This document shows, piece by piece, positions 2,436 to 64,000 of a stretch of DNA of 64,000 bases. The notes below the pieces were generated by a model, which was not told the DNA's origin, made no database searches, and saw nothing but the letters and a program-made list of their open reading frames with translations. Source of the stretch: Botryllus schlosseri (Eukaryota). Every line of letters begins with the position of its first letter. The stretch's first letter is position 1. Made by a program: the position numbers and the translations under genes. Location of the stretch: assembly GCA_051294905.1 (NCBI GenBank), contig CM119371.1, forward strand, positions 38,380,001 to 38,444,000, in the 5' to 3' direction.

Positions 2436-3120
2436 ATGACCACAGTCACTCTTTATGACAGAGTCATAGTGCACAGATTTTCATAGCGTCGCAACAGATA
2501 CGCACTGAATCCATATGGATATGACTTATATAGGCTACTATTTATAACATGTAGCTGCTAATAGACCCTTCGAGATGTAGAGGGAGAGAGGCAAAGGCAC
2601 TCGTATAGTCCTGTCATTTCCAAGATGTCACGTGTCTTTGCTGCTCATGCAAGCGGAATTCAACAAGGTTAATGATCACACTGCATAAATATCGAGCCTT
2701 GATGAATGATTCGCTTCACTTTCACATCATCATGTGATTCAGGGATTAAAAAATGTAGGAGATGGTACGGAATGGAACCAGTCAATAGTAGATAGATGGA
2801 GACATCTTAAATTGATCGTTCCGTAATCTCTGCCTAATTGTTTGAGTTGTATTGAGTTAGTTTCCTCTCAATACCGTGGTTGATGACGTGCTTATGGAAA
2901 CTGTTATCAATAAGATTTTCCAGATATTGTTCAATATACAATTTAATAGTATATTCATATTGAAATGTTCCCGAATATTGTTCAGCGTGAGCTGTAGAGA
3001 TCCAATAGACCACGAAATGACTTACTTGTCCCGGTTTTAGACGCGTCCAATGTTCATATTGCACCAAATACCGCTGTCTCATTTGATCATTTTTGCTTTA
3101 TGTGTATGATATGTAAATAG

Positions 3121-23726: not shown

Positions 23727-23880
23727 GATTCCAGCATGTGGATTGCATATAAGGTCAAGGTGCAGGTTGAAATTAGTGTCGCATTATGACGTCACATGTT
23801 CAAACTGGGCACCAACGGGGTTTTGAACAAATGCATTTTCGATATTGCAGCAAACAATACACTCATATTGTTAAATTTAT

Positions 23881-23920
23881 TCCACTGGAAGCTTTTCGAC
23901 TGGCTCTCTTCAGCAGTGAA
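23881..23920 (-). ncRNA. Minimal type-I hammerhead ribozyme, second PLE arm
   Basis: Reverse complement reads ttcactg-CTGAAGA-gagccagtc-GAAA-agct-TC-cagtgga; 7-bp stem I with one G-U pair; AATAAA follows immediately. Confidence 0.85.
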
Positions 23921-24081
23921 CGCCAGTAAATGAGGTTAATCAAGTTCGAAATATAGGAAGAATTTTGTCGTTGTGACGTAATAATGACAAGTACACAAGT
24001 CGCGAACGGCAGTAAACAGCACACGGTTACGGTACAGCACACACAAAATCAGCTGTAAAACAGCCGAATGACAAAACAACA

Positions 24082-25974: not shown

Positions 25975-26693
25975 TTACTACGAAGTCTTTGCTACCAGCA
26001 ACACGTAAGGATGTGCTTCCTGCGATTGATCAGAGTAACATAATTTACTAATATACGTGCCGATGTGACAGTCGGTATGTGGGTCGCACATCTCAACGCT
26101 TGCAACAAAGAATTCGTCAACACGTCCCAGCACGTCAAATTAGGAATTCGCAGGGTGATGACATGTCTGCTTCATCATCACTGTCCCTAGTTATCATGCG
26201 TGATTATGACCAAGTAACAGCATGTAATTCTGCCCTCGGACAGCACCTATTGAAACACCCAGAGTGTGCAAAACATTACAATATCAATCAGTTTTCCATA
26301 GTTGCTCGTGGTCGTTCTCTTTTTCATTTAAATGTCCTTGAATCAACGATTATAAAGCTGCAAAAGCCGACCCTCTGCCGCCAGAAGGAACATCTCTACA
26401 CGCTGGGAATCTTCCATTAGTGTTGTTTTGTCATTCGGCTGTTTTACAGCTGATTTTGTGTGTGCTGTACCGTAATCGTGCGCTGATTACTGCCGTTCGC
26501 GACTTGTGTATACTTGTCATTATTACGTCACAATGACAAAATTCTTCCTATATTTCGAACTTGTTAACCTCATTTACTGGCGTTCACTGCTGAAGAGAGC
26601 CAGTCGAAAAGCTTCCAGTGCATGGAATAAATTTAACAATATGAGCGTATTGTTTGCTGCAATATTGAAGTTCTGTACTTCGAAAAGCCTATT
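25975..26693 (+). repeat. Inverted copy of the PLE 3' end (GIY-YIG region + 3' UTR/pLTR + tail)
   Basis: Reverse complement of 24524-23842 with a few indels, plus an extra tail TGAAGTTCTGTACTTCGAAAAGCCTATT. Confidence 0.92.
26585..26620 (+). ncRNA. Minimal type-I hammerhead ribozyme in the PLE pLTR
   Basis: cactg-CTGAAGA-g(agccagt)c-GAAA-agct-TC-cagtg: full catalytic core, stem I cactg/cagtg, 1-bp stem II, palindromic stem III (AAGCTT). Predicted cleavage after C26615. Confidence 0.85.
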
Positions 26694-28323
26694 CAAATGC
26701 ATTTTCAAAAAAAATGTTCGTTTTTTCAAAGATTGCATCGTTATGCCATAATTGTGCAAAATTTCGAAAAATATGTAGTATGGGCCTATACGGACGATGT
26801 GCACCCAATATAGTCGACGTATACGACGTGGTTGGAAACCTCGAAATCGTCATTGGTACAACAGTTACTGCAAGTAGATACAGATAATTGGTACGGAATT
26901 GGTGTTCTGATGATGACCGCCGGCCGTAAAAATGCTGCATACCGATGTAGTCCTGGTTAGAGATATTTTTGTTGATTTTATGACGGAGGTCGGAGGGCAT
27001 TTTCGTCGAAGAAGCCGTATTTACCCTATATATATTTTCAATTGTCAATTTCAATCAACTTTGACGTCACAATTGAAGGTTCATGACGTCGTGGCTAGAA
27101 AGCAAAAACTGTTTTAAACAAGGTTCATGTTTTAGTCATTTTTGCGATAGCTCTGCACCATTTTGACGAATGAAATCTTCATAGGTACGGCATGAAATAG
27201 CTCCAGTCGCCACTGCTTTGAAAGTGACCACTACCGATTCTATGAGCATGCGTCCACTCGGATAAAACCTACCTTTTGAAAATACGTCTTCGAGCACTTT
27301 TCAGGACATTCATTCGTTACTTCCTCTTGAAGTACATTTGCGGCGATGGAGCCACATGCAAAAGTACCGCGTGCGAAAATGTTGTTTTGCATGACGTCGC
27401 ATTCTGAAATGTCGGGCGATCTCATGTTGACACATTTTTCCTACGGTACAAATATCATTCTTTAATTTCCGAACGTTATAAATAAAAAATGTTACATTTT
27501 TCAATGACAGTTCTTTCGTGGTCATGCGTGTTGGTCCGGACATGCATCTGCTGCGAAAATAACACACTTGTCACATGCATGCATGTTCTTGGTGTCAATA
27601 GATTATTATTATCAAGCTACTTTTCGCGTAAGGTACACTTTTTCGGTTGTAATGACACCGAGCGCATTGATGCTATTTTAGCAGATATTTTCACGAATTT
27701 CGGGTTTGTGTGAACGGCGTGGAACACTCTCTAATTACCGTTTCAGTTTATGCCAATAAACATTCCCATTTTGACTTAGACAACAGATTTATCGAGAGTC
27801 AGCTCACAGGCGCACGTTCTCATAACAAACGGACGCATTTCGTGACCATCTTGACGCATAATTACACGATCATACAACCGTTTACTTCTCAAATCTATCT
27901 CAAGTCACATCATGTAGCAGTCTATATTGCATATACACTGTCGTGGTGCTGTCGATTTTTAGATGTAACCGTCGTATCTGTGTATAATGTATACAGAAAG
28001 ATTTTGTTTTGAGATATTAAATTTAGGGCAAGATTTACCCGAAATGTGCAAATATGAATCAACATTGAACACTTGCTCTCGATGGCACGGTTTCGTTTTC
28101 AAATTGTCATGACTTCTGTTATATAAGCGTTGCATCTGAAGCATATGCGTTTAAAAAAGAAATGTTCAGAATCCAAAACGTTTTGCTTCAATGAAGTTAT
28201 CGACAACAACCACAACAGACATGCCACAAATCTTATTTGACTTTCAAAGTAGGTGTAACGAAGCACATCTATACTTTATAGCGTATACAGGTAAGCTTTA
28301 CCAAACCGCAATACTTGATAAGT

Positions 28324-39027: not shown

Positions 39028-39789
39028 CTTGCAGTTATTTCAGTGTATGCTAGCTTCGTAAGTTCTTAATTCTGAAGTATAACAAAATAATTGATCAAAA
39101 TTCTAATACTGATCACTAGGTAGATAACTTAAAAGCCGACTTAACGTAATGAATATTCCCCAATATTTCTGAGGTATCGCAAAAGGCAAGCATACAGCGC
39201 ACCTCTGATACTGCCTACAAGAGGCGTTTGAATCTTAGCTCTGAGATACAGTCGCCCAAGACTGATGCTATCCCCCTCGTTCTGCGGTATTTAAAGACTC
39301 GGCATTTTTTCCTTTTCGGCTATCATATCAAGATCGCGATATCGGAGGATCCGATATGTTTGTATGCCATTAATGATAAGCAGATGTGTGGTGTTCGGCA
39401 ACGTCCCAGAACGAGAGAAGAATGACGCAATCACAACGAGAGAGAACTCGACCGTTTCCCGGCGTTGTATCTTTTTTCTAATTTCGCTCGCCTTGAAATC
39501 GCTTACTTGGCTATAATTAATCACCGGAACATATATATCGCCACTGTGGATACCTATCCCCATTTTTGTTCGTACAATTTACCCACTCTACGAAGACATC
39601 GGTTTAGAAGTATCACAAGAACAAGATGCACACAATTGATTATGTTACAGTTTACTAGATCAAGGGAAAGAGGGATTCAATTTGAACAAATCTTTAATCC
39701 ATACTACGCTTGATGCAGTGTGTTTTGTGTTGTTATTTTGGTATTCACTGGGTTTCAACTATACTACGCGCACAAGCGGTGTCTCATAA

Positions 39790-44400: not shown

Positions 44401-47400
44401 GGCACTGTTCTAGGTCACATGGGTCGTTTCGACTTTTTATTATGTTTTCATTTAATACAATATTGTGGCGTCTCGTTGTATGCCTAATAAATTTTTGGAC
44501 TAAATTGAACTGAGCTGAAAACAAGTCCGGTTTGAATATTGGCTGTTCTGATAACATCGGTCGTAGGCTGCTCGGTTGTAACTCCTGGTCACTGCGACCC
44601 TTTCCTACCTTTTCGTTCTATAACAATATTGTGGTGTTTTAAAATCATGGGACATTCAACAACCTGAGCTAATTAGGTATTATATTACTATACATTATAC
44701 GAGACACGTTTAGAGCCGGGTCGGTTGTTGTTTGTGCGGAGTACAAAGATGCAGTGCGACACGGATTTGACCGCAGTGAAGCCACCGTATGACTTTCACG
44801 AGAAATTCCAAGTGCCAGTCAACAGATAGGCCTCTATTCGCAAAATTGTAACACGTGCTACTTTTAGGAAATTATTTTCTGGTATAGAATAAAAGAGAGA
44901 TCTAAAATTTATTGAATTTCGAACTCATATACTTCCGTCGAGTAAAGGCCACTATTTCAGCACGAATTGAGGCTTTTTGCTTGCATTGCGAGACTTTCCA
45001 GGGTGCGTCGGACGCTGCTAATCAGTGACTCATTCGATTTGACCTTATGGAGCAGACAGTTATGCACTGATATGACGGTTACGAGTGACTGAGTTACAGG
45101 CGATAGCTACGCCCACCGCACGCCCCAGAGGCTATCGATGGTCTGCTCTTTAATAATACTCTTCGGACTGTCTTTGTTAGGCGAACCATTCCGTAGATTG
45201 ACAACATCCATATTCTATCGATGTTCTACGCTCATTTCCATGCAATTATCAGTTATTCTAGGATATGGTTGATGGTCTTATCATCTTTCCAACAGCTAAA
45301 GTTTACCAACATATGACTGGGCCATAATGGGCTGAAAATTATGAGACACACTACGTGATACGAGAACACAGCATTTTTGATGGCCATTTTCAGTATACCA
45401 ATCTTGCGAAGGAGAAATCCTCATTATTTCTATTTCAAATATTATTGTTGGGTAAACCGGATATCCTTTGTTTCCACATCATGTCTTTGCATGTAAGTGT
45501 AAAACTAGACATGGGACAGTTGTGACACAATAGCATATGGCACTACATCATGTCATGTCATACTAGAAGTAGTTCGGTTATGATCTGATTAGGGTTTATA
45601 TTATATTCGAGATGTGGTTAGGATTTGAGAAACGGCTTATTCCAGGGTTAGGGATGCGGTTTGGATTCATTTATGGGTTATTTAGTCACATATCGAACTG
45701 TAGGATGCTAAGCTGTCGTTTTGCAACACCCGTCATTGCGGTCACAAAATTATTTTTTTTTGACATTTTTCGACCAAAATCAAAATAGTATATACTTCCT
45801 CCAAAACTGCTTTGTATGTTGTTTACTGATTCCGAGGAGAACATTCCATATCCTTCGCCGTGTTACAGACAGTATAGTAAAAGCGTGGGAAATTTGAAGC
45901 AAATTCTTATGCACCGAGTATTTGGACATCCTAGATTTTGCTGACGGGCAAATTTTGCTGCGAAAACAGACTTTCTATCCATAAAATTCGATCATGAAGA
46001 TTCCCGACTGTTGTTCGCAGGTTACGTTGCAAAAACATGGAGTCATTCGTGTACACTCGGTCACACCCCGAATCGTTAAATGTCGAGTCCATAAGAAAAA
46101 TGTGAAGCTTTGTCTGCGCAATAAAAACACCAACCATATGGTAAATGTGTTTCGCGTACCGGATGCAAAATTTGAAGGAAAGTTCTAATTTTTCAATCCC
46201 CTGTTCATTCTTGAACCCGTATGCCATAGCCATATATTTCGTCAATATTGAAAAAGCAATACGGCAGGACATATCTGGTATCGCGTAATGAAAAAATCAT
46301 ATCAAGCTTAGATTTCGTAGTCATACAATATATAATATGGTAGAGAATATTGGTCACATACATATTGTGAATTTACTATTTTTACATTACTATGTGTTTG
46401 AGCCAATTGTTCGTGGACGCAATACGTGTCCATCTTCAAGATCAGTGTTATTGGACTATCCTGAAATATTTGAAGTAATGATTTAGTTCGATCCAACAGC
46501 AGTCAAATCCAATCTTCCCAGAAACTATTCTAACTTATTGCGCATCATTGCCTGTTCAGTTTTTATCAATGGAAATTCAGGAGATATCGACTTACGCTTC
46601 TATTCTATTTATACATCACTTGACACACGATATAATTGGATCCGTTAGTAATCAGAAATTCTAAATGACAGCATTCAGTTTTTGTAATTCCGTTCCTATC
46701 TGCACTCGAAATTGCTGGACTATGACAGGTCAATTACGCTTACTGACACATGACACTTCCTTTTCATAGCTTGTTCTTTTTTACTCTCTTTTGACATTTT
46801 TAATACAGTGCGCATGCCTCTTATTTACGTGATATAGCCCATGGGTCACCAACACACGGCCCGCGCCCATGTTAGAGCACACAGCGTTGTACAGCGTTGC
46901 ACAGATTTAAAAGCATGGTAGCTAAACTGTGTGGCCTTTTTCGTTTCGATATTGCATCTTGCAGCTTGTGGTCTAGCTAGACGATATTTGAAAAGTGGTC
47001 CGCCACCTTTTTGTTGGCGACCCCTGCTAGCCCAAGGTGGGTGCCTAATTAAAATACTACCAAAAGTGCTTCATGAATGAATAATTTTTTGAAGAGCTTC
47101 TTGGAGGTACACAATATGAATATACTATTCAAGGAATTTTTTGTAACAGGTGTATCTTAGATTTGCAAGTAGTGACATATTCACCAAAATTCAAACTCCA
47201 CTACAAGTCAAAGTAGTCATTTATTTGCACCAGACTGTCAAGTAAACGCACTTTACGTAGTGTCGAAAATAAGTAATGTTGTGTGCCTAACACAAGTAGC
47301 TACAAAGACTACTACAAATCGTTTGAATTCATCCTTATCTTTTCATTTTATTGTAATCTTTTGGTGTTTTGAACTGATAAAATTATAACTAAACCGAATT

Positions 47401-48693
47401 GAGCTGAAGACTTGTCTGGTTTCAATGCTGGCATAGGTACATCTGCGAAGGAAGACAATTACGCCAATGAATATCATCAAGTGCAATCACACAACGCTAC
47501 CAATGTGGTAAACAAACTCTCACACCTCTTCCGAGTCCACGGTCGTATTTTCCAGGTATGTTGACGTGAGTCATAGCGTTGTGAATCATAATAATCTTTT
47601 ATCTAATTCATGCGTGACCGAGAATTGTGCGTAGTTGGGAATGCAGCCGATTTTCTTCACGTAAATCACGGTGACTTGGATCAATCGTCAAATAAGTTTA
47701 TGGCCGTCCCTCCTTTTATTCCGTCTACCTCATCGAATGGCGTTAAAAGCTAGAGTTTGCATTCCGTTATCAGATCAAACAGGGTCAAGGATGGGACCTG
47801 AGATATACTTCTGGAACGAATTTGCATTTTATTCTCTCTCACTCAATTCGGTAGTATGTGACGACACGTCCGCAATTCGGTAGGCCCTCTCAACCTTTTT
47901 ACCTCTCACCTCTAGAATGCTATCGAAGATACGTTCTACGCTCAAGAACCGGCTAACTCACGCGGCTTTACTCGATGAACCCGGAGCAACCAGTTCAGTT
48001 CAGTTTATTAAAAATACCATGATTTTAAAACACGAGAAGATTGCGATGCAATGAAACGGTACGAAGGAGTCGAAGTAACTGGGATTAGTAGTTTTGTTAA
48101 ACACCAAACTTGACCTAGAACATACAAATAAAAGGCGTGTACAGTTTCGCAATGAATATAAAGTGAAAGAAGATAACATAAAAAGGAAAAGCGATATAAA
48201 TGAGGGGGCAATGTATAGGTGGGTGAATACGATATGTCAAATCGTGAAAGCATAATAGTATACATGAAATAGAATCTATACTTTAGTTTTACTTGTTTGG
48301 TGACTAAATGATTGCCGGCAAAATACTGTTCCACGCTTGTAATATGTGAAACTCGATAAAGCGATGCATTCTCTCGTAATTTGTGGGCAACATACGATAA
48401 TTGGACGGCGAGGACGCGCGTACGATGTGCTTTCACATGTAGTGGATTTTTAGACAGCTATTTCACAGCAAACATTCCACTTATGCAATTCTCAAGATAT
48501 TTTCCATTTACCCCATTGCATTATATACATTCAAATAAATACATGAAACTTCGTCAGGGCAATTACAACTTGGATATTGACGTACAGTTGGACAGATTTG
48601 GATACTCATAGACCTTGCGCAATTGCGATTTGTAACGCGAAGCAAGCTCCTGGATTTTGAATTTGCAAACCCTAGATTTTATATACTGTATAT

Positions 48694-49428
48694 CAGTATT
48701 TTTCAATCTTTTTGGCAGTCGGAGCCGCATTTCAAACTTCAGAGTACGTATGAATCCGCTAAAAACACTAGAGTAGGCTACTTATAATGAAAATATTAAG
48801 GTATAAACTAGCTATAGCCTACCTCTGGATTTCACCATCCAGCGAATTCAAAATCAGGAACATAGACTTCTATGGATTCTATATTGGTTATTTTAGCATT
48901 GGTATTTGGTAGACGCAGATTAGCGATTTCTATATATTGAAATAAACTGCTAATGCATATCATTACTACAACATACTATTATGTCGGTATGTGATAGCTC
49001 TTCAGTCTTCATACGCTTCAGCACTTATTGCACAAATTTGCGGGGGATTATACGCTAAGTAATGTTGGAATTATTGCAATTTAAACTTGACTATATGAGT
49101 CGTTATTTTGATGTTAGTAAAATTGTGTCGAAATTTCCTCTTTACAGAGACGATATATAAAGGTCTATACGACCAGAAGACCTCACGATATATCCTTGTG
49201 TGATGGGTATTTGACGCTATTCTGCAAGAATTCGCTTTCCCGGTTTTCAGAAGCGGCCTTGGACGGCTTTAGACATAACTAATATCTATCATTTTAGCCA
49301 TCATAAATATAGAAATTGACTATAACTATTCACAGAAACAAACAACAACTGTCGTCTATTACATTTTTGTGGCATAATTATAGAGGTCAATCAAAGCCGG
49401 CTCTTAGAGCCGCAGTTGGGAATCACTT
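48694..49428. mobile_element. Old hAT MITE
   Basis: Degenerate TIRs with GAGCCGCA subterminal motifs; TSD CTGTATAT/CAGTATAT. Confidence 0.65.
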
Positions 49429-49490
49429 CAGTATATGGTTGTTGCTTTTTAGGCGGCCGAATCAATAGTGTTAGTTTAATAATTTAGAAT

Positions 49491-49602
49491 CTGCTGACGA
49501 TTGCGTCTGACGAGTGTCCGCCGAAAATACTCGGCTTTATTTCAATATGAATATATTAATTAAATGTATATTAAAGTTCTGTACCTACGAGAAAGCTCTA
49601 CA
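49491..49602 (+). repeat. Degenerate copy of the short hammerhead element family
   Basis: gctgacgattgcgtCTGACGAgtgtccgccGAAAatacTCggc...tttcaatatgaatata...aagttctgtacc; core intact but stems mutated. Confidence 0.75.
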
Positions 49603-50460
49603 AATAACGCTCCTGGCCGGACAGGGTATGAGTATCGTATATCAATGACGTCGCCATGACCCATTGCGCAAATATTGAGTCTGGAGTTATTCTCCCTTGT
49701 TGACCTTTTCAAAATTAATGCGTCATCGACCGGGAGCTGAGTAGCAACTAGACATACGGGTCTGGCCGTCTGTTGGCAAAAAAATGTCTAACGATTTCTC
49801 TCAAGCGTTTATAAGCCACCATACACTGTACGTGTACGTACGTACAGTCAACCCGACTCAAACCACAGTCATCAGCGGTTAAAGGCGATGTCGTCATCGG
49901 AAGCGCGCGCGGTCACACACGATGAAAAAACGACGAAATAATGCTACCCTTTGTAAGGTGATTGATGTAGTTATTTTTCGATAAATGGTAAACGCTTTAC
50001 AATAGCTGCGTTGGATTTAATCAAGAGGTATTATTTCAACTGTTAGCTCGTGCTACGAATGACCCGCTAATATGAAGCAGACAGGGTCGGTTTTACGTAT
50101 TAATTACTGCTTTTTGAATAAAAGGCTCCCAATTTAGTTGGTTAATTCATGGCCTGTCTCCTTAAGGGGCATGTCGTGCCAGTTCTATTTGTCATTATGA
50201 CGTCGTAATATTCAATATATCGCAAAAATGACTATCATTTTCCAACTTAAGTTTGGTCGCCATTCGCTAATCTGGCGAGTGATTGTAATTGCGTGATTTC
50301 CGCACTTGCTGAGAGTCAAGTACCGTTTCAATTCATTAGTGTAGATCAGTTACTCAACTAACCGTTGCTGCATTCACCATGAGATACATGACCGGCTCTG
50401 ACTTAGAATCATAGTATGGAAGTCATCGAAGTATTAAATATGCAATTAAATAATCTCTTT

Positions 50461-50515
50461 ATTCGTTCGTTCGTTCCTTCCTTCCTTCATTCATTCATTC
50501 ATTCATTCATTCATC
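50461..50515. repeat. Compound (TTCG/TTCC/TTCA)n microsatellite
   Basis: Directly visible. Confidence 0.9.
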
Positions 50516-50517
50516 AA

Positions 50518-50930
50518 TTCAATATAGACATGAACCCGAATATATTCGACTGACACTCGCCAGGGGTAATTTTCAACAACTAGTAGAGATCACAAATTTT
50601 AAAAGTCGGTACAATTATGTTCACAGCACCATTTGATCAATACATTCACTGAGATGTGAGAACCTCTAACCAGCTGCCCTGATACTAGAGTGAAGTTAGG
50701 CTAATGTCTTTTGGATCTAAAAGCACGGTCTTATTGCGAGTCTTCCATACTATTGCGCATTTTGGCAATTCAGGAGTCACCGTATGAATTCAATAATAAC
50801 GAACCCGAATCTACTAATTGCTGACGACTACCCCAGACGAGTATGAGCCGAAAATATGCGGGCTCGTCTCAATATGAATATACTATTCAATGCTGGTATA
50901 TTGAAGTTCTGTGCCTCTAAGAAGCTCTTC
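50518..50930. repeat. Head-to-head pair of degenerate hammerhead-element copies (about 50518-50586 minus; 50811-50930 plus)
   Basis: Both begin ctacta(g/a)ttg(c/t)tga; the plus copy carries the tail ttgaagttctgtgcctctaagaagctcttc. Confidence 0.72.
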
Positions 50931-52399
50931 AATATAAAACAGCTTTGAAGCAGAATCATCATGGCGGCTTACACGTAAGCTGTAGGAAATAGAGTTCAAT
51001 CACCGAGAAAATGGCTGCAGTTGCGGGTAATAAAAAAACAGAATTTATCATTGAGCACTTGGGTAAATCTTCGAATATGGAAAATACTGTAAATCTTGCT
51101 TGCTTACGGCATCAAGACAGGAGGATCGGTGAATGGATATAATTTATATCGCTTCTAGTTCGCGATCAACTCATAAATCATATGCTTTTATTTCTGCAAA
51201 TTGGATTTTTTCGGCGTGATTGAGCACTTTAACAGGGCTTTCAAACAGTTCATTGTTCGCCAACATCAAGTGATCAGTTGTTACTGGGAATAGCGGCTCC
51301 TTGTATTCGAGTACTGTAGAACGTTAACACCTTCCGTCTCACATAAATTGATATCGTTGGGTCTAACTATAGACGCGTCACGAATTCAGACGCGTAAAAT
51401 CGCATTTTTGGGTGGTCCTGTTTTAGATCGATGCTTGGCATCGGCGAAGATGTGATATCACGGATTTAGATTTCACGCGTCTATATTTCGCGTGCAATTA
51501 TAAGCCGATATCTGCTAGGTGGTATCAAACTGAATAGATTTGCGCCACAGTATCGTTCATTTCACAAGAGTTCGAGGGTGATTATGTGACAGAGGACTTG
51601 TCTTATTGCAAACGTGGTTATTTCACAACTGCATTCTCAGCAAATCTCTTAGCACCAGATGTTCAAACTGTGATGTGTATTAATATATGTACTTAAAATT
51701 GCGTTTATAAATATTTCTAACGTCTTTACCGGGGCTTCACAGAGGATCCCCATAAGCATGGGACAATCACGACTTTCAAGTATCGTTTGGACGTCTTTTC
51801 CTGTTCATTAGTGAATTGCAAGTTCACTGATGTCGGCAAGGTTTCGATATGATAACATTTGCTATGATTGATTGCAGGTCTAATATCTGATGGATGTCTT
51901 TTCCCTGTGTTGCTTCACTGATGCAGATGATTCAACCGCTCATTTAAACCTCGTTCTATAATTACACGGTGCAGATTTGTTTACGTTAGATCGAGGGTGA
52001 TGTTTAGGCTACAGAGTCTATGAAACATGAACGGAAAGTCCCTATCTAAAGAGACATTACGCCACACAACAGGCTCTGTGTGCGTATGTATAGGCCACCA
52101 TCACAGCTTTCGGAAAGAAAAGTCTTAAGTTTAAGTGCTGTTGTAATTTCTTGAAAAATATCCCCGTTCTAACATTCGAGCTAATTTTATATTTGGACCG
52201 GCATCGGCATCACTTCTAAATTTGTCTTTATTTGGACAGTCATCGACTCGGCTAATTCTGTTATTAGCCCTAACCACTGTCGCAACATCTCTCATTCAGG
52301 AAAATAACATGGTGATGCACAAGTCGAAAGGAAGTATGAACATATAAATTGTGAATTCATATACCTTGGACAGTCCATGTACAATGTACATAGGAAGTG

Positions 52400-52485
52400 T
52401 TAGTTGCTGACGACTAACACCAACGTGTGTAAGCCGAATATTTTCGGGTTTATTTCATCAATAATATACTATTCAACTGTATAAT
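52400..52485 (+). repeat. Degenerate copy of the short hammerhead element family
   Basis: tagttgctgacgact...aagccgaatattttcgggtttatttc...tatactattcaa. Confidence 0.65.
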
Positions 52486-52521
52486 AATGTGAAATTCGTT
52501 TCAAAACGCAAGATTACTTAC

Positions 52522-52704
52522 CATATTCAAAATGATACTATGCTTTCCCTGATTTGAACCACACCCCAGGTAGGCTGTATCGGATGATATAAGCGACGCT
52601 TCATTTAGAATATATGAGCTGTTCTGAGAAGAAACGCTATCGCCCTTATTCAAGGCATATTTCTGCCTTGACGACATCGTATCCAAAAATTCCATCTGCG
52701 TCTC
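52522..52704 (-). CDS. Candidate isolated exon (ETQMEFLDTMSSRQKY...IILNM)
   Basis: TTTTTCAG acceptor and GTAAGT donor bound 183 nt; only the phase-0 frame is open. Confidence 0.35.
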
Positions 52705-54700
52705 CTGAAAAACCGGATTCGGGCATTTGCAATGACATGATGTCTTGCTGCAATCGAGAAAATGCTCTCATGTTCGGGTCCATGGTATGGCTTTTTGTTC
52801 TTCAAATACGGTCGGTTTGGGAGGGCGTGTATGTGTGGGAGGGTCAATTATTCACGCTTTCCCACTTACCGAGTATTAAAAGATTTTAAGTTATCATCGG
52901 AACCGAAATCATTGTTAATCCACCATCGAAACTCTTTCGTCATCCCTGTCAAGTAGCTCGACATGTTCTTTTACACGAATACAGGCAGATAATTTATTCT
53001 AAAATATAGGGATACATGATCAGCACTTAACAGTCGTAGGAAACGCTTTTCTATTATGACGATGCATAGCTCAGTTTGTGTTGATGCTCCTATACCGAGA
53101 GTTGTTACGTCATGTCCATGAACCGATTGGTCAAGGCGTAATCCTAAATTTTTGTTTTATCCAGAATCCGTCAAGGAAAGCACTAACATTTGGTCTGCAT
53201 TTAATATCCGGAGTTGGGACCAACGTATTCAAGACATCCTCATAGTTATGTTCTAATAATGATGTTGCTTTTTCTAAGTTGTAATATTTGTAATTTGAAA
53301 TTGTTTACTGCGGTACTGGTGAGAGTTTTTAAGTCTTAAGTTTCAAGTATTATGGACTTCGGTATCCACATATATAGTTTCGCATTGATAAAGAGATTAG
53401 GAATTCTTCCTCCCTCACCAGCTTGAGCCTTTTCAGAAGCGTGTTTTTCAAAATCGTTTGCATGGTTCAACAAATATTAAGACATCTTTCTGGTTACGTA
53501 ACAGCATTCTAGAAATCGGAATATTTTGCGACACGATGTCAATTGGCCTACTTTATATTAAGCTTGACCTTTTTTTTACCGGGTGCGCGCTATATAAAAA
53601 AAACCTGTAGCTTCACACGAAATTCCCGAATGGATCTTCTGCCGACGTTTTCGACTCACGGCATGGAATGTCTTGTTACCCGGATAATCTCACAGACTTT
53701 TAATCACCATGTCGTTCGGATGGTACAATTTTATTGTCACTAATCCGGAAACATTAAAGTGTTCTGCTTCATGCCACGGAACGGAGTGTTCTAATCTTCA
53801 CGGTCTAACGTCTTGTCGGATAAATACAGAAACGATAATTAGCATTTAGTTAAGGAAGATTAGCTAGAATCGGAATTTTAATATCTGGAAAATGCAGTGA
53901 CGAAATCCACTTTGTCACAATTTTGACCTTTGGTGTTGAGTATTATAGATCAGAATTCACCTATATTACTGTGAGAAAAGAGATATGCTCTCGGCTTGTG
54001 ACAAGATCGTTTTTGTTTGTGAGTTCCTAATCCACATTCTTACTAAGCTAAAGATGAGTGTACAACTGTACGATGCACATTGTACAATCATCCTGTCTAT
54101 TTTCGTGATGTCAAACGATTCAACGTATGTTTGGTTCCATATAGTTTTTGTTGAGATCTCCATTCATCTGTCTCATTCGATCATCCGTTACCGATAAGTT
54201 AAAAACTCGCAGGCAAGTGATTTCGGATGTACAATGAAAACAATGAAAACATAAGAAAAACCAATTTTTGTTCCCTAGATCATTAATATTCCACCCACCG
54301 TGGTTCCGATCATTAGTTTTCTCATTAGATAGAAATGCTATTTGCTTTTGCGAAGATGATACCATCACGATTCCTTGTCTTAAGTTTACCGCAGTGTTTT
54401 TATTTGTCGATTCGATTGTTGTAAATGTGCGGTAATCTTGAAGGGCGGTAATCTCGTATCGTTCTTAAGGTAAGTGGCGTGACACATGACTTTTATTGTC
54501 TTTTATTGATGTGATTTCAAATGAGAAATAATCCACTATCAGTTTTGGGATGGACACTTGTCTCGTATTTACACGAAGCAAAGTCAGTCGCATCTTTTCC
54601 TAAGATGTGAAATCCGAATAATATTGTAAAGGTTCATGTCAAGCGTTGAATAAAACATGTATAGCAGGGCAATTGAGCATATATCGTCCTCCTTCTAAAG

Positions 54701-55448
54701 CAGTAGTTACAAACCTCTTTGTTGTCACAGACCCGTTTGAAATAATCAATTAACATAGTATTGATATTTATAATCATTATGCTACTCAGCTGTGACTGGA
54801 CTGTCAAAAACTTTTAGTGTTGTTGTTGTTGGTGAAGAAGGAAATACAGATCGAACGAAAAACTATAAGTTGAATTCACCATTAACATAATACTAAAATA
54901 AAGAAACTAGAAAAAAGTAGGGGAATAAATTAATAAAGACAAGATAGGCTGACGAATGACAGCGGGGAAAAGGGCCAGAGCTTCTTAGCGGGGGTCGTCT
55001 CGCACTGTTAGGACTTGGTCACGCTTCTACAAGCGGTTTTTTCCGGCGATACAATTCGATTTTAAAAGTGACCAAAGGGACCATGCCAAAACGTTTCAAC
55101 ATAAGCAAATTTAAGTAGAGGGCAGTTATCGCCTCTGCTAAACTAACCCGCATGCTTTTTGCGTAATAGACGAGTACAACGTGATTTGACCGTTACCGAC
55201 AAGCGTTGTGTTAGATGTAGTATTGAAGTGCGAGGTCAATGTAGGCGACAGCATAAATTTATTTTGATGCATACCTGTAACAGTTTATTCTCACGTGCTT
55301 AAGCTTGACAAATGTACATTTAAATAGAGAAATAAAAGTAATAATAATCGCTTTGTGGTTTCCCAAAATTCTTCAGGGAAACAAGGGACCCCAAATGCTT
55401 TTACACGGAGCCTCGGGGGGTCCATGGATCCCAGGTTAAGAACAACTG
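54701..55448. mobile_element. Old hAT MITE
   Basis: CAGTAGTTACAAACC...GGTTAAGAACAACTG; degenerate TSD. Confidence 0.6.
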
Positions 55449-57544
55449 CTCTAATGACTTCATGAAACATTTTCGCAACACCTGGCGTGGTCAGTAACGA
55501 ATTACTTCTACTTGTTCCCGGTCCAAAATTACGATTTCCCTATTTGCCCTTCTTACTCAGGGGTTATGTGCTTGAATAATATTTCCACTTCACCAGGCTA
55601 AACTAGGCCCATAATACTTACGATCTCACTACCTATGGAATCACGGCTTTGGCTTGCTTTTGAATATTAATTCACGAAGTTCCTTCTACTTCTACAAGAC
55701 TACAAGCAATGACTATTTTGACCACCTCTGCCAAATAGCAAACCATAAACAGCAGAGCCAATATCCTTACTCACGCGTTTACGATTGTCAGGTCACGCCT
55801 TCGCTGCTAGAAAGATGACGTTATCAGATGAGGTTTTTTTTCGCATAATTTCCGCAGCTATCTCACGGGCTCCCCGTGATATCATCGGTATTTTTATACA
55901 TTCCCACTGTTCTCAATTCACCCAACGCAAATTACCCGCGAATTTTCGCGCTACAAATGACCTCAATGTAGTCATTATTAGAAGAATATTTGCTTCTCTA
56001 TTCCACCAGGGCTCGTAGATTGAAGACCAATCTACTAAATTGCTGTTCATTATCAAAATATCTACTTAGCTATAAGTTTCCATCATTTCACGATTGCATA
56101 CCCTGATCTGAATGAGCTAAGCGGAGAGGCCCAAAATTTCCCAGTACTGTGTCAGTCCGTTTCAATATTGTGCAGGAACGACAGAGGTTTTGAAAATTAC
56201 GTAAAGCACTACAAGTGCGGTATGCCAGCCTTAATACATAATTATAACCCTTACACCTCTTCATTACCAGTATAACTGTTGCTCATTGACCATAACCAGC
56301 TTGTAAAAGTTGATAATTTTTCGTTGAAGTTGTGATAGAGTTCTTACATTCATGATTGGAAATTTATTGGAAGCGAGAAGAGCCAAATAAGGATGTTCAG
56401 TTAATCTCACAATGACGAATATTTCTGGGATTTCAATGATTCGTGACGGAAACCTGATTACGATTTCTAAACTTGAATAAACAGTTGTAAACTATTATTC
56501 TTGTTTAAAATAAGTATTGGTATTGATATGCATAGTTTTTTACTGACTATAATCAAATTCGGACAGTCTTGAAGCCAAGTACATAATGTGCAAACTACAA
56601 AATAGCTATTTATTATACACTTCGTGTGAGTATGCAGGTATAGGATACAGGGATTTACTTCAAACAGATTACAGCATTTATATACGAGTCGCTTGTGACT
56701 AGAACGTCATAAAGTATGTATTAGGATGCCGGTAAATTGTATAATATTTTAATTGTGTCTCGTGACCCTCCTGCAGGAAATTCGAAACCGGAGTAAATTT
56801 CGCCTGCACCTGGTTCTCTTAATTTGCTCAGAAAAAGGACCCGCGACTGACTGATTGTGTGATGCAATTACGCCATTAGTTTAATGGAGACCTAATGAAA
56901 CGATTCTGTCTATCACTCACGCTGCAATTACTGGATTAGGTCGCTTCGTTTAATCACAGACCAATGTGGCGCAACATGCCTTTCAATTACAGCGTCTGAC
57001 ATTGTCATGTCAATGTTTCTAACGGGATTGAAACCATTTCTAAAACTCTTTTTGTCACGAAATGAGGACTAATCACCATCAAACCCGAAACCTATTTACA
57101 ACGTTTGGTCGCCTTGTAGAAGAATTGTGTTTCTGAGCGCTGTTTTCTGTCTTTGAAGAGGCGGATTTTGTTGTTTAACTGCGAAATTGTGTTTGGTAAT
57201 GATATGTGTTGGAAACCGTCGGTGCATGATATCCGTGATCGGCAGAACTAAATTTTAAGCAAGGTAGAATCGCTTCTCTTTGGTATATGCATCAAACAGT
57301 GTGCCGTGCCAACTCGGTCATTATTATGCTCTCGTTATGCTCTCGTAACTTTTGCTATTAGCACCGGTCCCATAGCCTTGCAGTCCACATTACCGCGAAA
57401 GACCAGTATCGATGTATTGTGAGCGAATTCTCCCCGCCAAATTGTAAAAGAATGAATATTTTCCAGAGTTGGGACAAGACAGCTGAACACATCGGGAAAA
57501 CTACTGCAGAAATGAGTCGCGAAAGACGAATTGCTCTAATTTAC

Positions 57545-57890
57545 GGTGGAATATAGGAAAGAACACGACGTAGTTTCTTTATGTCCTTCATGTTTTTTGC
57601 GGCATATACACCGACCCATGGTATACATATAGACGCGATCTGTGCATATGCATACCATGAGTGCATGATGTGCATATGCCGCTGGATAAGGAAGGTGCAA
57701 ATATAGCCTTGTACGGCTTTCGAAGTCTTGCACCACCCCTCCATGCTATCCCAATGCGCGAGCACCAAGCGAGGAAGTCATGGATACCAGTGTAACTGAT
57801 CAGGTCTTTGGTCCGACCCGGCCAGAGATCGAGCCCACGACTTACCGATCAAGAAGCCGGATGCGTCACCATCACGCTATGTTGTTGGCC
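57545..57890 (-). mobile_element. tRNA-derived SINE family 2, second copy
   Basis: Collinear with 20305-20636. Confidence 0.75.
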
Positions 57891-58324
57891 AGGACATCGT
57901 CGGTCAAAATATTGTTTTACTTCAAATATCCATATTTCCTGGATTTGAAATCATGATTTCAAAGGTTTCGTCAAAACCGGTATTATAGTTTTGCTTCACC
58001 GTACTCAATTTCTCAGTCAATATATTTGAAGATTGTGTGTAATTTGCACATCACGGAGATAACCGATTTCGCGCCGACCGGAAAAGCTATCCATTCATTC
58101 ATTTTTTGCATAGTATATTCAATTTATTCATATTGAAAGTAACCCGAATATTCTCATTCGTGTGTCTTCCGGTCGACTTCTTTTTATCAAAATCAGCCAA
58201 CCGAGTTTGCATTGACAGAAGAGTTTATGTATAATATAATATTGAGCTTAAGCGATCTGTTCGACTGGATAATTAAAATTATCTTGCCAAATCTCATGTT
58301 CATTCATTCTTTTGTTTCGCACAA

Positions 58325-58556
58325 TGCAATGGGTTGCTGTATCGTGTCTGACCGAAATCGACTCCATTATACCTACCTAAGTGTTTGCGTTTTATGTAGG
58401 CTCCTTCTCACCACGTGATCCGTGTATGCGGTGACTTATAAAAGCCTAGAAGCAGGCGGTGCTACAAGTCGGTAAACACGGAATCAAAAATAAAGAATAT
58501 CGGCCTGGTGTAAAATGACCAATGTAGTCGAAACACCATGAATATCAAGCAAACAA
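58325..58556 (+). mobile_element. Degenerate SINE family 1 copy
   Basis: Aligns by eye to 200-420 (cctaagtgtt...aagcctagaag...gctacaagtcgg...acaccatgaata). Confidence 0.65.
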
Positions 58557-58762
58557 TTCTTTCATTCGTGTTCCTTCTTAAGGTCGACTTTATGAAAATT
58601 TAAATCAGCCAACCTAGTTTTTACCGACGAAATGAATTTATGTATAATCTAATATTGAGCACAAGCGATCTTTACACGACTCCATGATTCGAATTTTCAT
58701 GCCAACGACGTCATATTTAGTGATACCATTGTTGATATAAAATGTTCTTTTAACATTAGTGC

Positions 58763-58830
58763 TGGTCGCTGACGATTAACCCAGGCCATTGTCAACCGAA
58801 AGTATTCTGCATTATTTCAATATGACTATA
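58763..58830 (+). repeat. Highly degenerate copy of the short hammerhead element family
   Basis: gctgacgattaaccc...gtcaaccgaaagtattc...tttcaatatgactata. Confidence 0.55.
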
Positions 58831-60783
58831 TTATTCGATTTTACATCGCAGAAAGAGCGGAAGGTGATTTTCATATTGATTCGGAAAACGCGTATCATAG
58901 CTATGATATTTCATTTTCGACGGCAACAGGAAAACCAGCTATATACACCGATAAACTGCTTCGAAGCACTTGACACCGCATAACCTGACCGCGTGATTCC
59001 GATGCTTGGAGATTCACTCGACTATATTCGCAGTTACTATAATAATTCCCCGATATAACTTTGCGGTAAATCCGGTCAATCTGCGGTCACATATCGCCGC
59101 ACGTCAACCGCCTATCATGATTCATATTATTTATGTTACCATCGGGAAATTACTCTGTATATAGATACCGCGGACTAACTGCGCTATCTCAAGTGGTTAG
59201 ATTCCACTTCCCGGTGTCTTGATATAGGAAGATAAATATACATTTTAGGGTATGATTGGACTCTCGTAGGATAAATTCAATCAAATTGCACGCATTCAGT
59301 AAAATTGCATTCCTTTAGACATCGAGGAATGCAGAAGCTATCGCAACTATGAATTCAATTCCAATGCCTTTCTAGTTCCAGGCAATCAACACGTGTTTTA
59401 AAGTGTGGAGATGTGTCACACCGCATATTGTACACTCGTGATGGTCCAGCCGGCTGTTAAATTCAAACTAATATGCCGTTAGGTAGTTTCCAAGAGTTGA
59501 TGAGCTTTTGCTGCTCTAGGATTGCAAGGTATCGCCATCGATAAGTTGAATTCAAATTGATCAGAGTGGAACGAATTCATTGATTAGTTAGATTGCATCT
59601 CGCCTTAAAATACTTATGAAATGGATATATATATATATATATTATATATACGATAGAGAATGATCCATGAGGACCTGCGATTGGTCCTTCAGATAGAGCA
59701 TCAAACAAATTGATAGTTTTCACGGAAAATGTTGCAGATTACAGATCGGCGCGAAGGCTCGAGGTTAAAATTATCGCAATGACCTGATAAACCGATTTCA
59801 TGATTGAATTGGAATATTCCTATTCTGATATTTATCAGTCCGTGATTACAATAATATAATTTGATGTGTCTCCTCTGCTTCATTAGGGACTCTTTTTAGA
59901 TAGAATGCCTCTGATATTTTTGCTGAAGTGTGTCGTTAGTTCATCAAAGCAAGTTCTAACCCAGAACTGGGGACACGTCACGTAGACCACGACTGGACTA
60001 TGATTGAGGGTCAACTTTAGTATGATAGCTGCTATTAGAGCACAAGAAGCCGTTAGCGGGACTCTGGATATTATCGTACAAAGTTCATTTGTTGAAGCAA
60101 TCAAACCAATATCGAAATTGCGAAATCTCATTCACCGAGATTATAAGTATGTTTGTTGAAGCAATCCCTATAATTTGAATAACCGACATTTGACAGGCTT
60201 GATGTGGCCGGCGTGTAGTGACAATGACTTTGATAACCTTTACTCCCAAACGCAACGGCTCTTCGAGTATTTATAGCTTATCGCGATGCCGTTTCAACCT
60301 TATACAAATATTTGAATTCTGAATTTAACTCTACAATTACGCTCATTTACAAAGGTTTAAGGTTGGACGCTCTCTTTCCTCGCAGCTTCACGCGTGGCGC
60401 TTCAACTAATCTGTAGCCATCCATTCAAACGTTTGTAACTAATTCAATATGCGGACATGACATGCAACTTGGTCTCAGAGGTTTTAAAATGAACTTCCAT
60501 TGTTTCAAAACTCATTTAGAATTTGCATTCCACTCCCATCACGGTGTCTAATCTTCAGAACAACGATTAGGTGCCATACCAACTTTATATAACAGATGTT
60601 GTTTAATAATGATAGTAGGATGACAGATAATAGTAGTGACGCTTATCTCTCCTAAAGGACTGGTGTACCACGGTCTGTATTGCCTTTGTAATTAGTAACA
60701 ATGCGAAGCAGCAAGTGCGTGTGCATTCTTCATGTTAATATTATTATTGTCAAGTGTAGTAAAATCGTGATACTGGTGCCTAT

Positions 60784-61153
60784 TAGTGCGGAGCATGGAC
60801 CGTAACCGGATTGGATATCCGCCCGGATTTTTTCAATGTTGGCCGGAGCTGCATCAGTACTTTTTTAATACGGTCTTTATTGATGAGCATGACTTTTGAA
60901 ACTAAATAACTACCTAGCAACCTACCAACCAACCAACCAACCAACCACACGCAAATAACCGCCAAACCAGTGCGAAAATAAACGAGCGATATTTATAAAT
61001 TCACGGAGCCCCCGTACCGTGTAGGGCGGACCATGAACCAGAGACGGAATGGATATCCGGCCGGCCTTCATCATTTCTTGTCGGAGCCGGACCAGATAAT
61101 TGACAAAGAGGATCGGAGTCGGATCAGAGAATTTGTCGATCCGCTCGGCACTA
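60784..61153. mobile_element. MITE with CCGGAT-type subterminal repeats
   Basis: TAGTGCGGAGC...GCTCGGCACTA termini; CCTAT on both flanks. Confidence 0.6.
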
Positions 61154-62452
61154 GACCTATCACATCATATTGCTTTTGTGCGCCATGTCTGTAGGAGTTA
61201 TGATGGGGAATACAAATCAAAAAATGTATATACAAATTTTAGTCTTAATAATATGTTCTTTCACAATAAATATACGTAACTAGATTGTACGACATATTAA
61301 TCCCAACGATAGACGCGTACATATATATATACTCTACATTTTTTTGCTTATACCCATTAACTTGCGATTTCTGAAAGGAGAGGAAAGTAAAGGACTGAAA
61401 TTTGAGGGTCAGTGGTACAAGTCGGCGCTCTGACGTCAATTTCTGCGACGAATAGGGTTATTAATAACGTTCGCATAACCGCGCGGCTACCGTTTTGCAC
61501 TGGCCGTGTATTTGAACACGATATGAAGTCCCGGATCAAACGACGAATATGGATAATTACGGTGGCGAATTCATCACACATCTTCGTAATTGCAACACAA
61601 AATAAAATGAGTGTGGGAACATCGTGTTCCCTCAGCTGACCTTCCCGTGCTTTCGTGGAACGAACGCTTTCTCACAATTAAACAAACTTGATCCTCGCAT
61701 GAACGGAGTGCTTGGCTAATTAAAATCGATTTATTGGAACACATTTATTCACAATTAACACGAAATGGCAAACGTGGGACATCGGACCATTTAGCACGGT
61801 CGACGGAGCTCCATGCGGCATACAAGCCAAATATAATTGACTACAAGGCGGTGTCTTCAAGCTCTCATTTCGAGTGCTTACAGTAGATCTGCACATCCCA
61901 GAAATATGTTCAGTAACGAGATAAGGTCCCTACACGCTTAACGGAAAGAATGTGTATTCACATCCAAAGGGCCGAAAGGGTGATAGACGACAACAGAACC
62001 TCAGAAGTATATAGCGGTCAAAAATCCCACGTGCCTATGTGGACACTTTTCTAATTCCTACGTGCGAGCATAATTGGATTAAAATGTTGCACTCGATGTA
62101 TACCACGGTATAAGTCGGAGGTTGGGTCTGGTTTCGAGCAACATGGGTATATATTAACACCTGTATATCCGGGGTGGTACACGGGGGGATATGCATGCAC
62201 ACTCTTACCGTACTCAAATGTTTCAGTTTTCCCTTCAAGTTTTTAGGGCAAAAATTCCTACATCTTTACGTTCTCAATTCTGTTAAACGGAAAGTAATTT
62301 TGGAACAAGTTTGCATCACTTATATACGTACGTAGTTATAACAACAGAGTCAGATATCCCAACATCCCCGTAAAACAATATATTGTCAGAAGAGCTTCTT
62401 GGAGGTACAGAACTTCAATATACAATTAAATAGTATATTCATATTGAAATGA

Positions 62453-62486
62453 ACCAGAATATTTTCGGCTGACACTCGTCAGGGGT
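62453..62486 (-). ncRNA. Hammerhead ribozyme, inverted arm (one stem I mismatch)
   Basis: accc-CTGACGA-gtgtcagcc-GAAA-atat-TC-tggt; G>T at the first stem I pair. Confidence 0.65.
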
Positions 62487-62506
62487 AATACTAGTTGCTG
62501 ACGATT

Positions 62507-62540
62507 ACCCCTGACGAGTGTCAGCCGAAAATATTCGGGT
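62507..62540 (+). ncRNA. Minimal type-I hammerhead ribozyme
   Basis: accc-CTGACGA-g(tgtcagc)c-GAAA-atat-TC-gggt; palindromic stem III AATATT. Confidence 0.82.
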
Positions 62541-64000
62541 TCATTTCAATATGAATATACTATTTAATTGAATATATTGTCAGCAATCATTATGGATTAA
62601 TCGCGAAGATCCATCATCAATTTCGAGAGCAAGCACTTCCCAATAATTTTTTAAAGTATGCGACTCCCCGGCCACATCTACTTTTCAAAATTACGTACTT
62701 GGGTACTGCTTAGACCTGTAAATATCTACTTCAAGACTAAATGTAGTTTTGTCATATGTCGAAAATACCTACTTCAGTTGAAATTGAGTAGTAAATTTTC
62801 GGCAATACATCTATCACTACTTCGACCACCCATGATATCCCATTACTACTTCCAATTTCTTGTTTTTGTTCACAGGATACCGAGAGATATCAACAAATAC
62901 TTTCCGTTCGTAATAATACGCAACCCACAAGTGACACGAAGACTGTGAACAGCGGATAATCAAGTTACGCACAAAGTTGACTTTATGATTAAGGCGACAA
63001 GCTTTCGCAAATTCTCGGCAGCAGGCGTCAATTGCATTCCGGCTTATCTGACACTTGAACAAATATGCGGCGTATTATAATAACTCTTTGATAATGGCCA
63101 CGTATGACGCTCAACATACTTTCCACAAGTGTTTGAAATTGGGAGATGATTCTGAATTTTCCTGTTTTTAAAATATTGTAAATCCGTATTGACGTCACTG
63201 AATTGTTTCGTCGTGATGAATTCGGGCTACAATTTCCGATATCCCGAATCTCGAACACTTCCGGATAATACAAAATGTGAGGAATCTAGAAATTAAAAAT
63301 GTTATCATCAATTCCGTTGCGGTCATTGCCCCGCAAAATTCGATGAATTCTACTCATCTCATCATTGCTGGAGTATTTGGTTGTAATAAGCTTCGATGCG
63401 AACAGATAACACATGCTCGTCCTCGCCACCCGGTAGACAGCAGGAATTATAAGACAACGCATCGCTTTATCAAGTAGGCCGGACCACGACTGTGGTACGG
63501 CGTTTAGCCTGCAACGCGACAGCTGCCGATCAAGTCAAATACAAACAGATCGTACTGGATAAATGCTAGTCTGTTCTTCAGATTACCAGACCGCGATCTG
63601 CTTTATCCATATCCTATACGGACATAATGCCATTTCATTTGTAACGCTTTTTGTGTTACTTTGTGTTCGGTGTGCGTGCCTCTCATATTTAAATTTTATA
63701 TGCCAAGGTGGGTGTTTAATTGGAATACTACTTCAAGTTTTTCAGACACATTCCTATATTTTCATTTTGTCGTCATCTTCTAGTACTTCGAAATGATGAA
63801 ATTGTTCATAAACTGAACTGATATTAAAACATGATGACCAGATCGATTTTCGGGTGTGCATTCTTCCCTGCTTTTTCCAACGGTATTATGAATTCGCGTG
63901 GAAATCATTCCAGACTTGCATTTCAAGCTCAAATACGTTACGGGTTGAACTGCTATATTTGTGATTAGTATTTTATCAGACAGACCAAGGCAATGGCATG

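Follow-up and report, generated by a model that had tools for sequence, protein, structure and literature searches.

What are the short hammerhead-bearing repeats scattered through a 64,000-nucleotide (nt) stretch of the Botryllus schlosseri genome (assembly GCA_051294905.1, contig CM119371.1; G000:C1:38380001-38444000 of a 495-Mb genome; hereafter the window), and why do they end like the Penelope-like element (PLE) that lies in the same window? A sequence-only reading had described them as a dispersed family of about 120-nt hammerhead elements with a recurring 5' start, joined to the PLE in a partnership like that of short and long interspersed elements (SINE/LINE), with a retrozyme-like parasite using the reverse transcriptase (RT) of the PLE. 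The copies that it listed all exist, align with one another and match an intact element beyond chance (BLAST E values of 1e-5 to 1e-46), but they do not form a separate 120-nt family. They are very probably 5'-truncated insertions of an autonomous Penelope/Poseidon-type element with a hammerhead upstream of its start codon, likely produced by target-primed reverse transcription from the first 18 codons of its open reading frame (ORF). The evidence comprises the parent element itself, a tail that is the start of its ORF, two clusters of 3' ends, the pairing of long with short arms in head-to-head insertions, and target-site duplications of 12-13 bp.

An autonomous parent element

Judged from their sequence, the short repeats derive from the end of a second autonomous element of Penelope/Poseidon type and are truncated at the 5' side; this element is here called family B, and the PLE of the window family A. 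A search with the copy at 62389, in which 40 of 462 candidates were scored, gave 30 loci with fixed 3' ends and variable 5' ends, and the longest copy among them has an upstream GIY-YIG frame with 52% identity to the C-terminal 175 residues of the window PLE. Twenty larger stretches around young copies contain RT-endonuclease (EN) frames of up to 800 aa that end about 100 nt before the hammerhead core, and at one locus (L168) two 848-aa ORFs are intact and a third is frameshifted, in tandem with a period of 2,692 bp. The B ORF is a single frame with an RVT_1 match (E=8e-9); its C-terminal endonuclease was identified by visual inspection of the motif and through the 52% identity to the C-terminus of the window PLE, and a Pfam search of the ORF gave no GIY-YIG match. 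B has the insertion traits of Penelope/Poseidon elements, including tandem units forming pseudo-long terminal repeats (pLTRs), an inverted 5'-truncated copy, a tail on one end and a target duplication, and its probable placement in this group rests on the ORF and on this layout.

Family B is young, intact and very numerous. One B 21-mer has 4,548 exact matches genome-wide, and 80 arbitrary 10-kb stretches (800 kb) contain 32 arms, which extrapolates to roughly 20,000 arms in the genome. Short B-related copies in the window are single or head-to-head, and each is collinear with B over its whole length, which differs from a SINE partner, where the head would be unrelated and the tail alone common. 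Their identity to the intact element spans 66-100%, in keeping with the long activity that the sequence-only reading had drawn from a range of intact to decayed copies. Two further young PLE families, likewise with tandem arrays of intact ORFs, were also encountered at L170 (G000:C7:8989500-8999400), L226, L227 and L242-L245: C, with an 845-aa ORF and a period of 2,722 bp, and D, with a period of about 2,780 bp.

The organization of B is familiar from EN-bearing PLEs of the Penelope/Poseidon clade (Poseidon_Ac, PMC11167929; Adineta Pen2a, PMC3846280; PMC8557442). These elements likewise have a single ORF of about 850 aa with RT and C-terminal GIY-YIG domains, tandem units forming pLTRs, heavy 5' truncation with an adjoining inverted truncated copy, a 30-40-nt tail on one end that codes for N-terminal residues, a short target duplication and a hammerhead at the ORF start.

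The tail as the start of the coding sequence

The tail of the short repeats is codons 1-18 of the B ORF. A search with the 5' part of the ORF gave 30 loci, and the tail lay in frame and directly upstream in 24 of the 25 rows starting at the query start, the exception being an inversion junction; of the remaining rows, three begin deeper in the ORF and two belong to family C. The same in-frame run into the ORF holds in families A, C and D. In the window, the family A tail (26641..26694, plus strand) is codons 1-18 of A's own ORF (MSVLFAAILKFCTSKSLF), and at L217 (97% identity over the query) the sequence reads MSVLFAAILKFCTSKSLFKYF onward into the RT. Because A ends at codons homologous to those of B, at the ORF start in both, the tail that they share is homologous coding sequence. 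The likeness that had been noticed between the repeat tail and the PLE terminus (26662-26693) is real, and a partnership of parasite and host element is not supported: an autonomous parent exists for the copies, the 5' ends form a continuum from -2 to full length (positions of copies are numbered from the family B ATG), and each family's tail is its own ORF start. Sequence comparison indicates that families A-D share the tail by descent from one ancestor, as homology among sister families.

Protein identity among the four families is 54-68%, and conserved residues use the same codon in only 38-43% of cases (A was covered over 432 aa and D over 788). The only word of at least 10 nt common to all four coding sequences is a 13-nt word over codons 9-13, where KFC is the sole invariant triple of 41 with identical codons, against a background of 22 identical columns among 80 two-fold columns. 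This is suggestive, not proof, of a signal at the RNA level, the site having been chosen post hoc. The 3' ends of copies fall into two clusters within the ORF start, at about +13..+25 and +50..+60, which matches the two internal RT start sites found in vitro for an Anolis PLE (PMC11167929). The suggestion that the tail is an RT recognition or priming signal can be kept in part: the two 3' clusters and the 13-nt word support the tail region as a site of RT engagement, and not a signal captured by a parasite.

Head-to-head insertions and their formation

One insertion in the window illustrates the layout. A long arm (62389..62489, minus strand; -47..+54) contains the hammerhead and ORF codons 1-18 (MNILFNCILKFCTSKKLF) and is 99% identical to the intact element at L168. 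It meets a short arm (62489..62575, plus strand) that runs from -62 to about +20, with a BLAST match to +25 and final bases that overlap the target duplication; the two 13-bp duplication copies lie at 62377..62389 and 62571..62583. After eight loci had been dropped as duplicates (L018, L027, L051, L188, L192, L207, L211 and L213), 44 such head-to-head pairs were available, of which 41 combine a long with a short arm, two are short with short and one is long with long. The long-short combination also holds in 23 of the 25 pairs that were not chosen by a full-tail query. A duplication of at least 9 bp flanks 26 of the 44 pairs, compared with 8 of 1,892 cross-locus controls, and measures 12-13 bp in 18 of the 26. 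Target and template overlap by a mean of 1.85 nt at long ends (0.47 when shuffled) and 1.12 nt at short ends (0.55). The long arm reaches further 5' in 18 of the 41 mixed pairs and the short arm in another 18, while in all four young pairs that were compared the arms differ by 0-1 base over 1.3 kb, compared with 4-13 differences between haplotypes. A correlation of arm lengths, significant in 41 pairs, was discarded; it disappeared after removal of seven length-selected pairs (rho 0.22, p=0.22).

Pairs of families A, C and D show, by eye, the same long-short split at homologous codons, as does the family A insertion in the window (23828..26706), which has a short-ended arm with a 630-aa RT+EN frame (24082-25974, minus strand), a long-ended inverted arm reaching 26694, and 13-bp target duplications at 23828-23840 and 26694-26706.

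The 41 mixed pairs among 44, with duplications mostly of 12-13 bp, point to priming from both nicks. In the mechanism that we propose, the GIY-YIG domain would nick both strands 12-13 bp apart; of the two 3'-OH ends, one would prime near +53..+56 and its counterpart near +15..+21, both aided by 1-3 matching bases, on a template RNA in which the hammerhead region precedes the ORF start, as in a tandem transcript or a circle. Both cDNAs would pass through the uncut hammerhead, mostly halt early and join head to head, and a lone end would remain where the second arm is absent or has decayed. The short arm cannot have templated the long tail because it lacks that tail. In vitro, the Anolis PLE protein cuts and extends both strands, and a dimer is predicted (PMC11167929). 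The qualitative insertion layout, with a tail that includes N-terminal codons on one inverted pLTR, has already been published (PMC3846280; PMC8557442), whereas the rule of one start site per nick is inferred in the present analysis. Family B also differs from its relatives in detail: target duplications are mostly 12-13 bp, compared with 8-10 bp in Adineta (PMC3846280), the ATG lies 14 nt past the predicted cut and not inside stem II as in Anolis, and the end sites are at about +17 and +54, compared with +111-118 in Anolis (PMC11167929).

Several observations weigh against this reading of family B. A duplication of at least 9 bp is missing in 18 of the 44 pairs. Gene conversion could also produce near-identical arms, and one haplotype is common to two of the four loci. 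For the Anolis protein, neither a start-site difference between strands nor start-site homology is reported in vitro (PMC11167929), whereas the genomic B pairs are asymmetric and show short template-target overlaps. Four raw RNA runs, 3-6% of each of which was examined, show no pile-up of read ends at the predicted cut, although such libraries may miss these ends. Finally, this reading does not account for a cluster of 5' ends in the window (post hoc p of about 0.003 compared with the random sample).

The strongest competing account accepts the parent and the tail as described and attributes the inverted pairs to fold-back (self-priming) of a single cDNA or to an origin on an antisense template, with the short end set by endonuclease resolution (PMC3846280). 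It agrees with arms that share a haplotype, with small overlaps at the junctions and with arm starts no more than 25 nt apart in 10 of 34 pairs (4.6 expected, p=0.008). However, the short arm lies further 5' in those 18 of 41 pairs, which fold-back of a sense-template cDNA cannot yield, and both outer ends overlap the template above chance. We regard fold-back as unlikely and retain priming from both nicks.

5' ends in and beyond the window

Of the six window arms that reach -55, five start at -55..-66, spread over this interval and not at a single base, so that the recurring 5' start noted from the sequence does exist locally. It does not extend to the genome. Only 1 of 22 arms in the random 800 kb starts there (31 arms remained after one edge arm was dropped), and none of the first 30 consecutive exact-match copies on C1 does, all of which start at -87 or further upstream in a set that favours young copies. 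Pooled arms outside the window, which are partly length-selected, give 10 of 139 at -70..-55, 9 of 129 in the next bin and a peak of 20 of 106 at -118..-103. Among the 4,548 exact-match copies, 3,135 (69%) retain an upstream 8-mer and 3,455 (76%) a downstream control 8-mer, so only about 9% end or diverge in this stretch beyond background. The window cluster is real and local.

Older B subfamilies might have had a true pause, or an RNA 5' end, just upstream of the pseudoknot described below (-55..-70), which would leave a weak hotspot visible in the window. Four of the five clustered window copies are indeed old (81-88% identity), but the random sample, with its old copies included, shows only the single arm there, and the pooled peak lies elsewhere. 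This is less probable still than fold-back.

Hammerhead and predicted pseudoknot

The B ribozyme, located just upstream of the B start codon, is a predicted minimal hammerhead of type I whose stem III is palindromic. In the short arm of the window insertion at 62389-62575 it occupies 62507..62540 (plus strand), with stem I at 62507-62510 and 62537-62540, the core at 62511-62517, a 1-bp stem II (62518/62526), GAAA at 62527-62530, the palindromic stem III loop at 62531-62534 and a predicted cut after 62536; the ORF start follows at 62551..62570 (plus strand), with the ATG at 62551. The second core-like heptamer that had been noticed upstream of the real core is present, but it is better explained as a pseudoknot strand complementary to loop II. 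At 62497..62502 (plus strand) it would supply the 5' strand of a pseudoknot, predicted to span 6 bp, with loop II at 62520-62525. Upstream strand and loop II read GCTGAC/GTCAGC in B and C, ACTGGC/GCCAGT in A and ACTAAC/GTTAGT in D, and further variants occur among 30 of the 961 matches to an AGCT-loop pattern, several single copies of which have a decayed or truncated pseudoknot strand. Across 11 sequences picked because their motifs are intact, pairing of the helix is complete (100%), and three of six pairs are changed on both sides. The observed pairing was reached by 0 of 500 shuffles, and slid controls give 11-42%; relatedness and selection of these sequences inflate the statistics, and the changes nonetheless separate whole families. 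The second core is thus predicted to be a pseudoknot strand with compensatory changes across four families. Covariation in stem I, proposed earlier as a check, was found at two of the three inner pairs, which change on both sides, and stem III has one invariant pair with palindromic loop sequences (ATAT and AGCT).

Minimum-energy folding of B favours a core/loop II hairpin with an upstream hairpin over the hammerhead; pseudoknots lie outside this method, and the result weighs neither way. Loop II of B and C is also complementary to the catalytic core (window 62511-62524), and an inactive hairpin could compete with the pseudoknot, less so in A and D. The parent hammerhead is predicted to have a 1-bp stem II held by the pseudoknot and to cut only as a dimer, and the hammerhead in short copies is probably a passenger. 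The canonical core pattern is kept in three of the eight window arms tested. An Rfam search gave no hammerhead at E<=1, and an Rfam match to mir-m107-1 at 62465-62528 (38 bits, gathering threshold 83) was rejected since the inverted junction alone explains it. A G-to-T change at the first base past the predicted cut, considered as a ligation scar after 30 of 35 long arms showed it in the first search, was an ascertainment artefact of the query; in unselected copies none of 44 long arms and only 3 of 67 short ones carry it.

Minimal metazoan PLE hammerheads have, like B, a conserved core, a G10.1-C11.1 pair, a palindromic stem III implying dimers and a stem I of 4-7 bp, and thousands of single motifs derive from truncated PLEs (PMC4209133). 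That work draws a long helix II, whereas loop II of B pairs upstream of stem I and leaves a 1-bp stem II. The pseudoknot-stabilised hammerhead tested in PMC3088659 is a metagenomic type II motif, unlike the type I motif of B, and part of that survey omitted repeat-type type I motifs. A literature search found no paper on a loop II pseudoknot in PLEs; supplements were outside its scope, and Lunse et al. may already describe it.

Retrozyme-like derivatives and RNA

Retrozymes and pseudoknots are used here as defined in PMC7229834, PMC6765202 and PMC3088659. Non-LTR retrozymes share a type I hammerhead and a PLE relationship with the B derivatives (PMC7229834; 10.64898/2026.07.22.740005). The window copies differ from them: they are monomers or inverted pairs, their length varies, they have an autonomous parent, and their hammerhead is of the minimal and not of the canonical kind. 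No abundant circular RNA was seen in RNA libraries that were not made for circles. Two or more successive units with full hammerheads occur at L026, L082 and L180 and in none of the window copies, which also have no defined monomer length.

Short tandems of B are rare (20 matches with a period of 109-139 at 15 loci, with varied junctions). One array (L026:1430-2165; G000:C1:32022377) consists of 123-nt units (-69..+54), five of them full, with private variants and a lost ATG; its alternating variants suggest local duplication. The exact +54/-69 junction occurs seven times at three loci, and at about six loci the end of the tail adjoins -67..-73. At L037:1425-1560 (G000:C11), a tiny tail insertion with a 12-bp duplication lies in an older B copy at about -69, in a site that resembles the long-end start site.

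Larger mini-units occur at L180, L082 and L085; each contains the ORF start as far as +196 or +208, fused to the 3' untranslated part. An exact gapped pattern found seven mini-unit junctions, all at two of these three loci, and older copies such as L085 escape it. At L180:4508-6050 (G000:C1:37767508-37769050) the unit is 359 nt (-151..+208), and the insertion, flanked by a 12-bp duplication, has arms measuring 774 and 769 nt, with ends at +18 and +58, both arms being repeated turns of the unit with zero mismatch. An older mini-unit at L082:914-1793 (G000:C9) joins +196 to -130 at three junctions in both arms, and another at L085:1421-1837 (G000:C8) joins +208 to -131. Like non-LTR retrozymes, the 123-nt array and the two mini-units of 325 and 359 nt are tandem and non-coding, and both mini-units fall in the usual size range. 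Splicing was rejected as the origin of the junctions, which lack GT..AG ends. A cis element may end at the recurring break near +200; with the ORF retained to +196..+208 in all three mini-units, this element would likely be a protein-binding one.

The assembly contains no source array for the 359-nt unit. A circular template is the simplest explanation for the L180 insertion, which is likely a rolling-circle product; possible alternatives are a source array that was lost or failed to assemble, or repeated template jumps. By analogy, L180 fits both the PLE circle model (PMC4209133) and a PLE origin of retrozymes (10.64898/2026.07.22.740005). Tentatively, and with distinctly less confidence than we have in the parent element, the genome may hold footprints of PLE insertion in which each of the two nicks is served by its own RT active site, the two sites begin at separate fixed points within the ORF start, and they can travel round a circular RNA.

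In the RNA runs, mean depth is mostly <10 over the ORF body and 300-1,300 at the terminal 180 nt. Terminal reads come from both strands, fall to a depth of <=2 past +65 and continue in 68-98% of cases into flanking unrelated DNA, a pattern that fits passive transcription of stubs inside host RNAs. The positions listed include none with numerous read starts or ends. The +54 to -69 joint is not among the 15 of 34 joints listed, in libraries not made for circles. Two results weigh neither way: the 359-nt junction is unbridged in two RNA runs and two contig sets, probably from other individuals, and no RNA record among the listed sequences holds the element.

A separate retrozyme- or SINE-like family of about 120 nt (about -69..+54), with its own RNA and a borrowed PLE RT, is highly improbable and largely refuted, since the window 5' cluster, the 123-nt array and the joins to -67..-73 in its favour are opposed by the scarcity of short tandems and of the exact junction (one of whose loci, L037, reads as a self-insertion), the lack of a genome-wide 5' peak, window copies that by eye lack the array's private variants, both-stranded reads that run into flanks, and a unit without ORF beyond +54 where the Anolis protein requires RNA downstream of its start sites (PMC11167929).

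Other copies and features of the window

The remaining window copies are older 5'-truncated ends of B, and the tail end is present in only four window arms. On the plus strand, 49492..49606 (-55..+59) is 87% identical to the intact element and retains the core pattern with changed stems, and 50810..50932 (-64..+56) has a mutated core, preceded by bases that resemble a short inverted arm (by eye, unscored). The core is also mutated in 50517..50589 (minus strand; -66..+6). A decayed end at 52401..52483 (plus strand; -59..+24) is extended by nhmmer to -96, from 52368. The copy near 58763, thought to be about 120 nt, is about 300 nt long (58553..58851, plus strand; -248..+30) and takes in the end of the endonuclease coding region. 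A decayed inverted piece at 58125..58239 joins 58155-58125 (minus strand; -24..+7) to 58150-58239 (plus strand; -245..-159). A miniature head-to-head insertion at 47083..47143 has a tail arm from 47088, a short arm at 47112-47132 and 9-bp direct repeats at 47083 and 47135. Further B pieces, missed by the sequence-only reading, lie on the minus strand at 2771..2979, where -21..+29 (2979-2930) stands beside an internal ORF fragment, -814..-659 (2925-2771).

Other sequences are also present in the window. A repeat family of ~215 bp occurs at 201-418, 15544-15719 and 58342-58555, and one copy splits the decayed PLE piece at 58.1-58.9 kb. Self-comparison gave a 1.5-kb inverted pair with 75% identity (8554-10036 with 12338-13840). 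Open frames on the minus strand at 37431-39039 have cysteine motifs that appear to be IGFBP-like and thyroglobulin type-1, and are probably exons of a host gene.

Implications

Single hammerheads left by truncated PLEs are already known (PMC4209133), so the window repeats are ordinary. Family B offers a test system for an open question, namely the way in which inverted insertions with a single tail arise from PLEs and whether circular RNA takes part. Its insertions yield three predictions: each nick has a single start site, the nicks are staggered by 12-13 bp, and a cis element extends to about +200. The covarying pseudoknot also suggests that assays lacking the upstream strand could underestimate the activity of PLE hammerheads. 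If insertion proceeds from circular RNA as L180 suggests, the mini-units, rather than the 120-nt stubs, would be retrozymes caught at birth.

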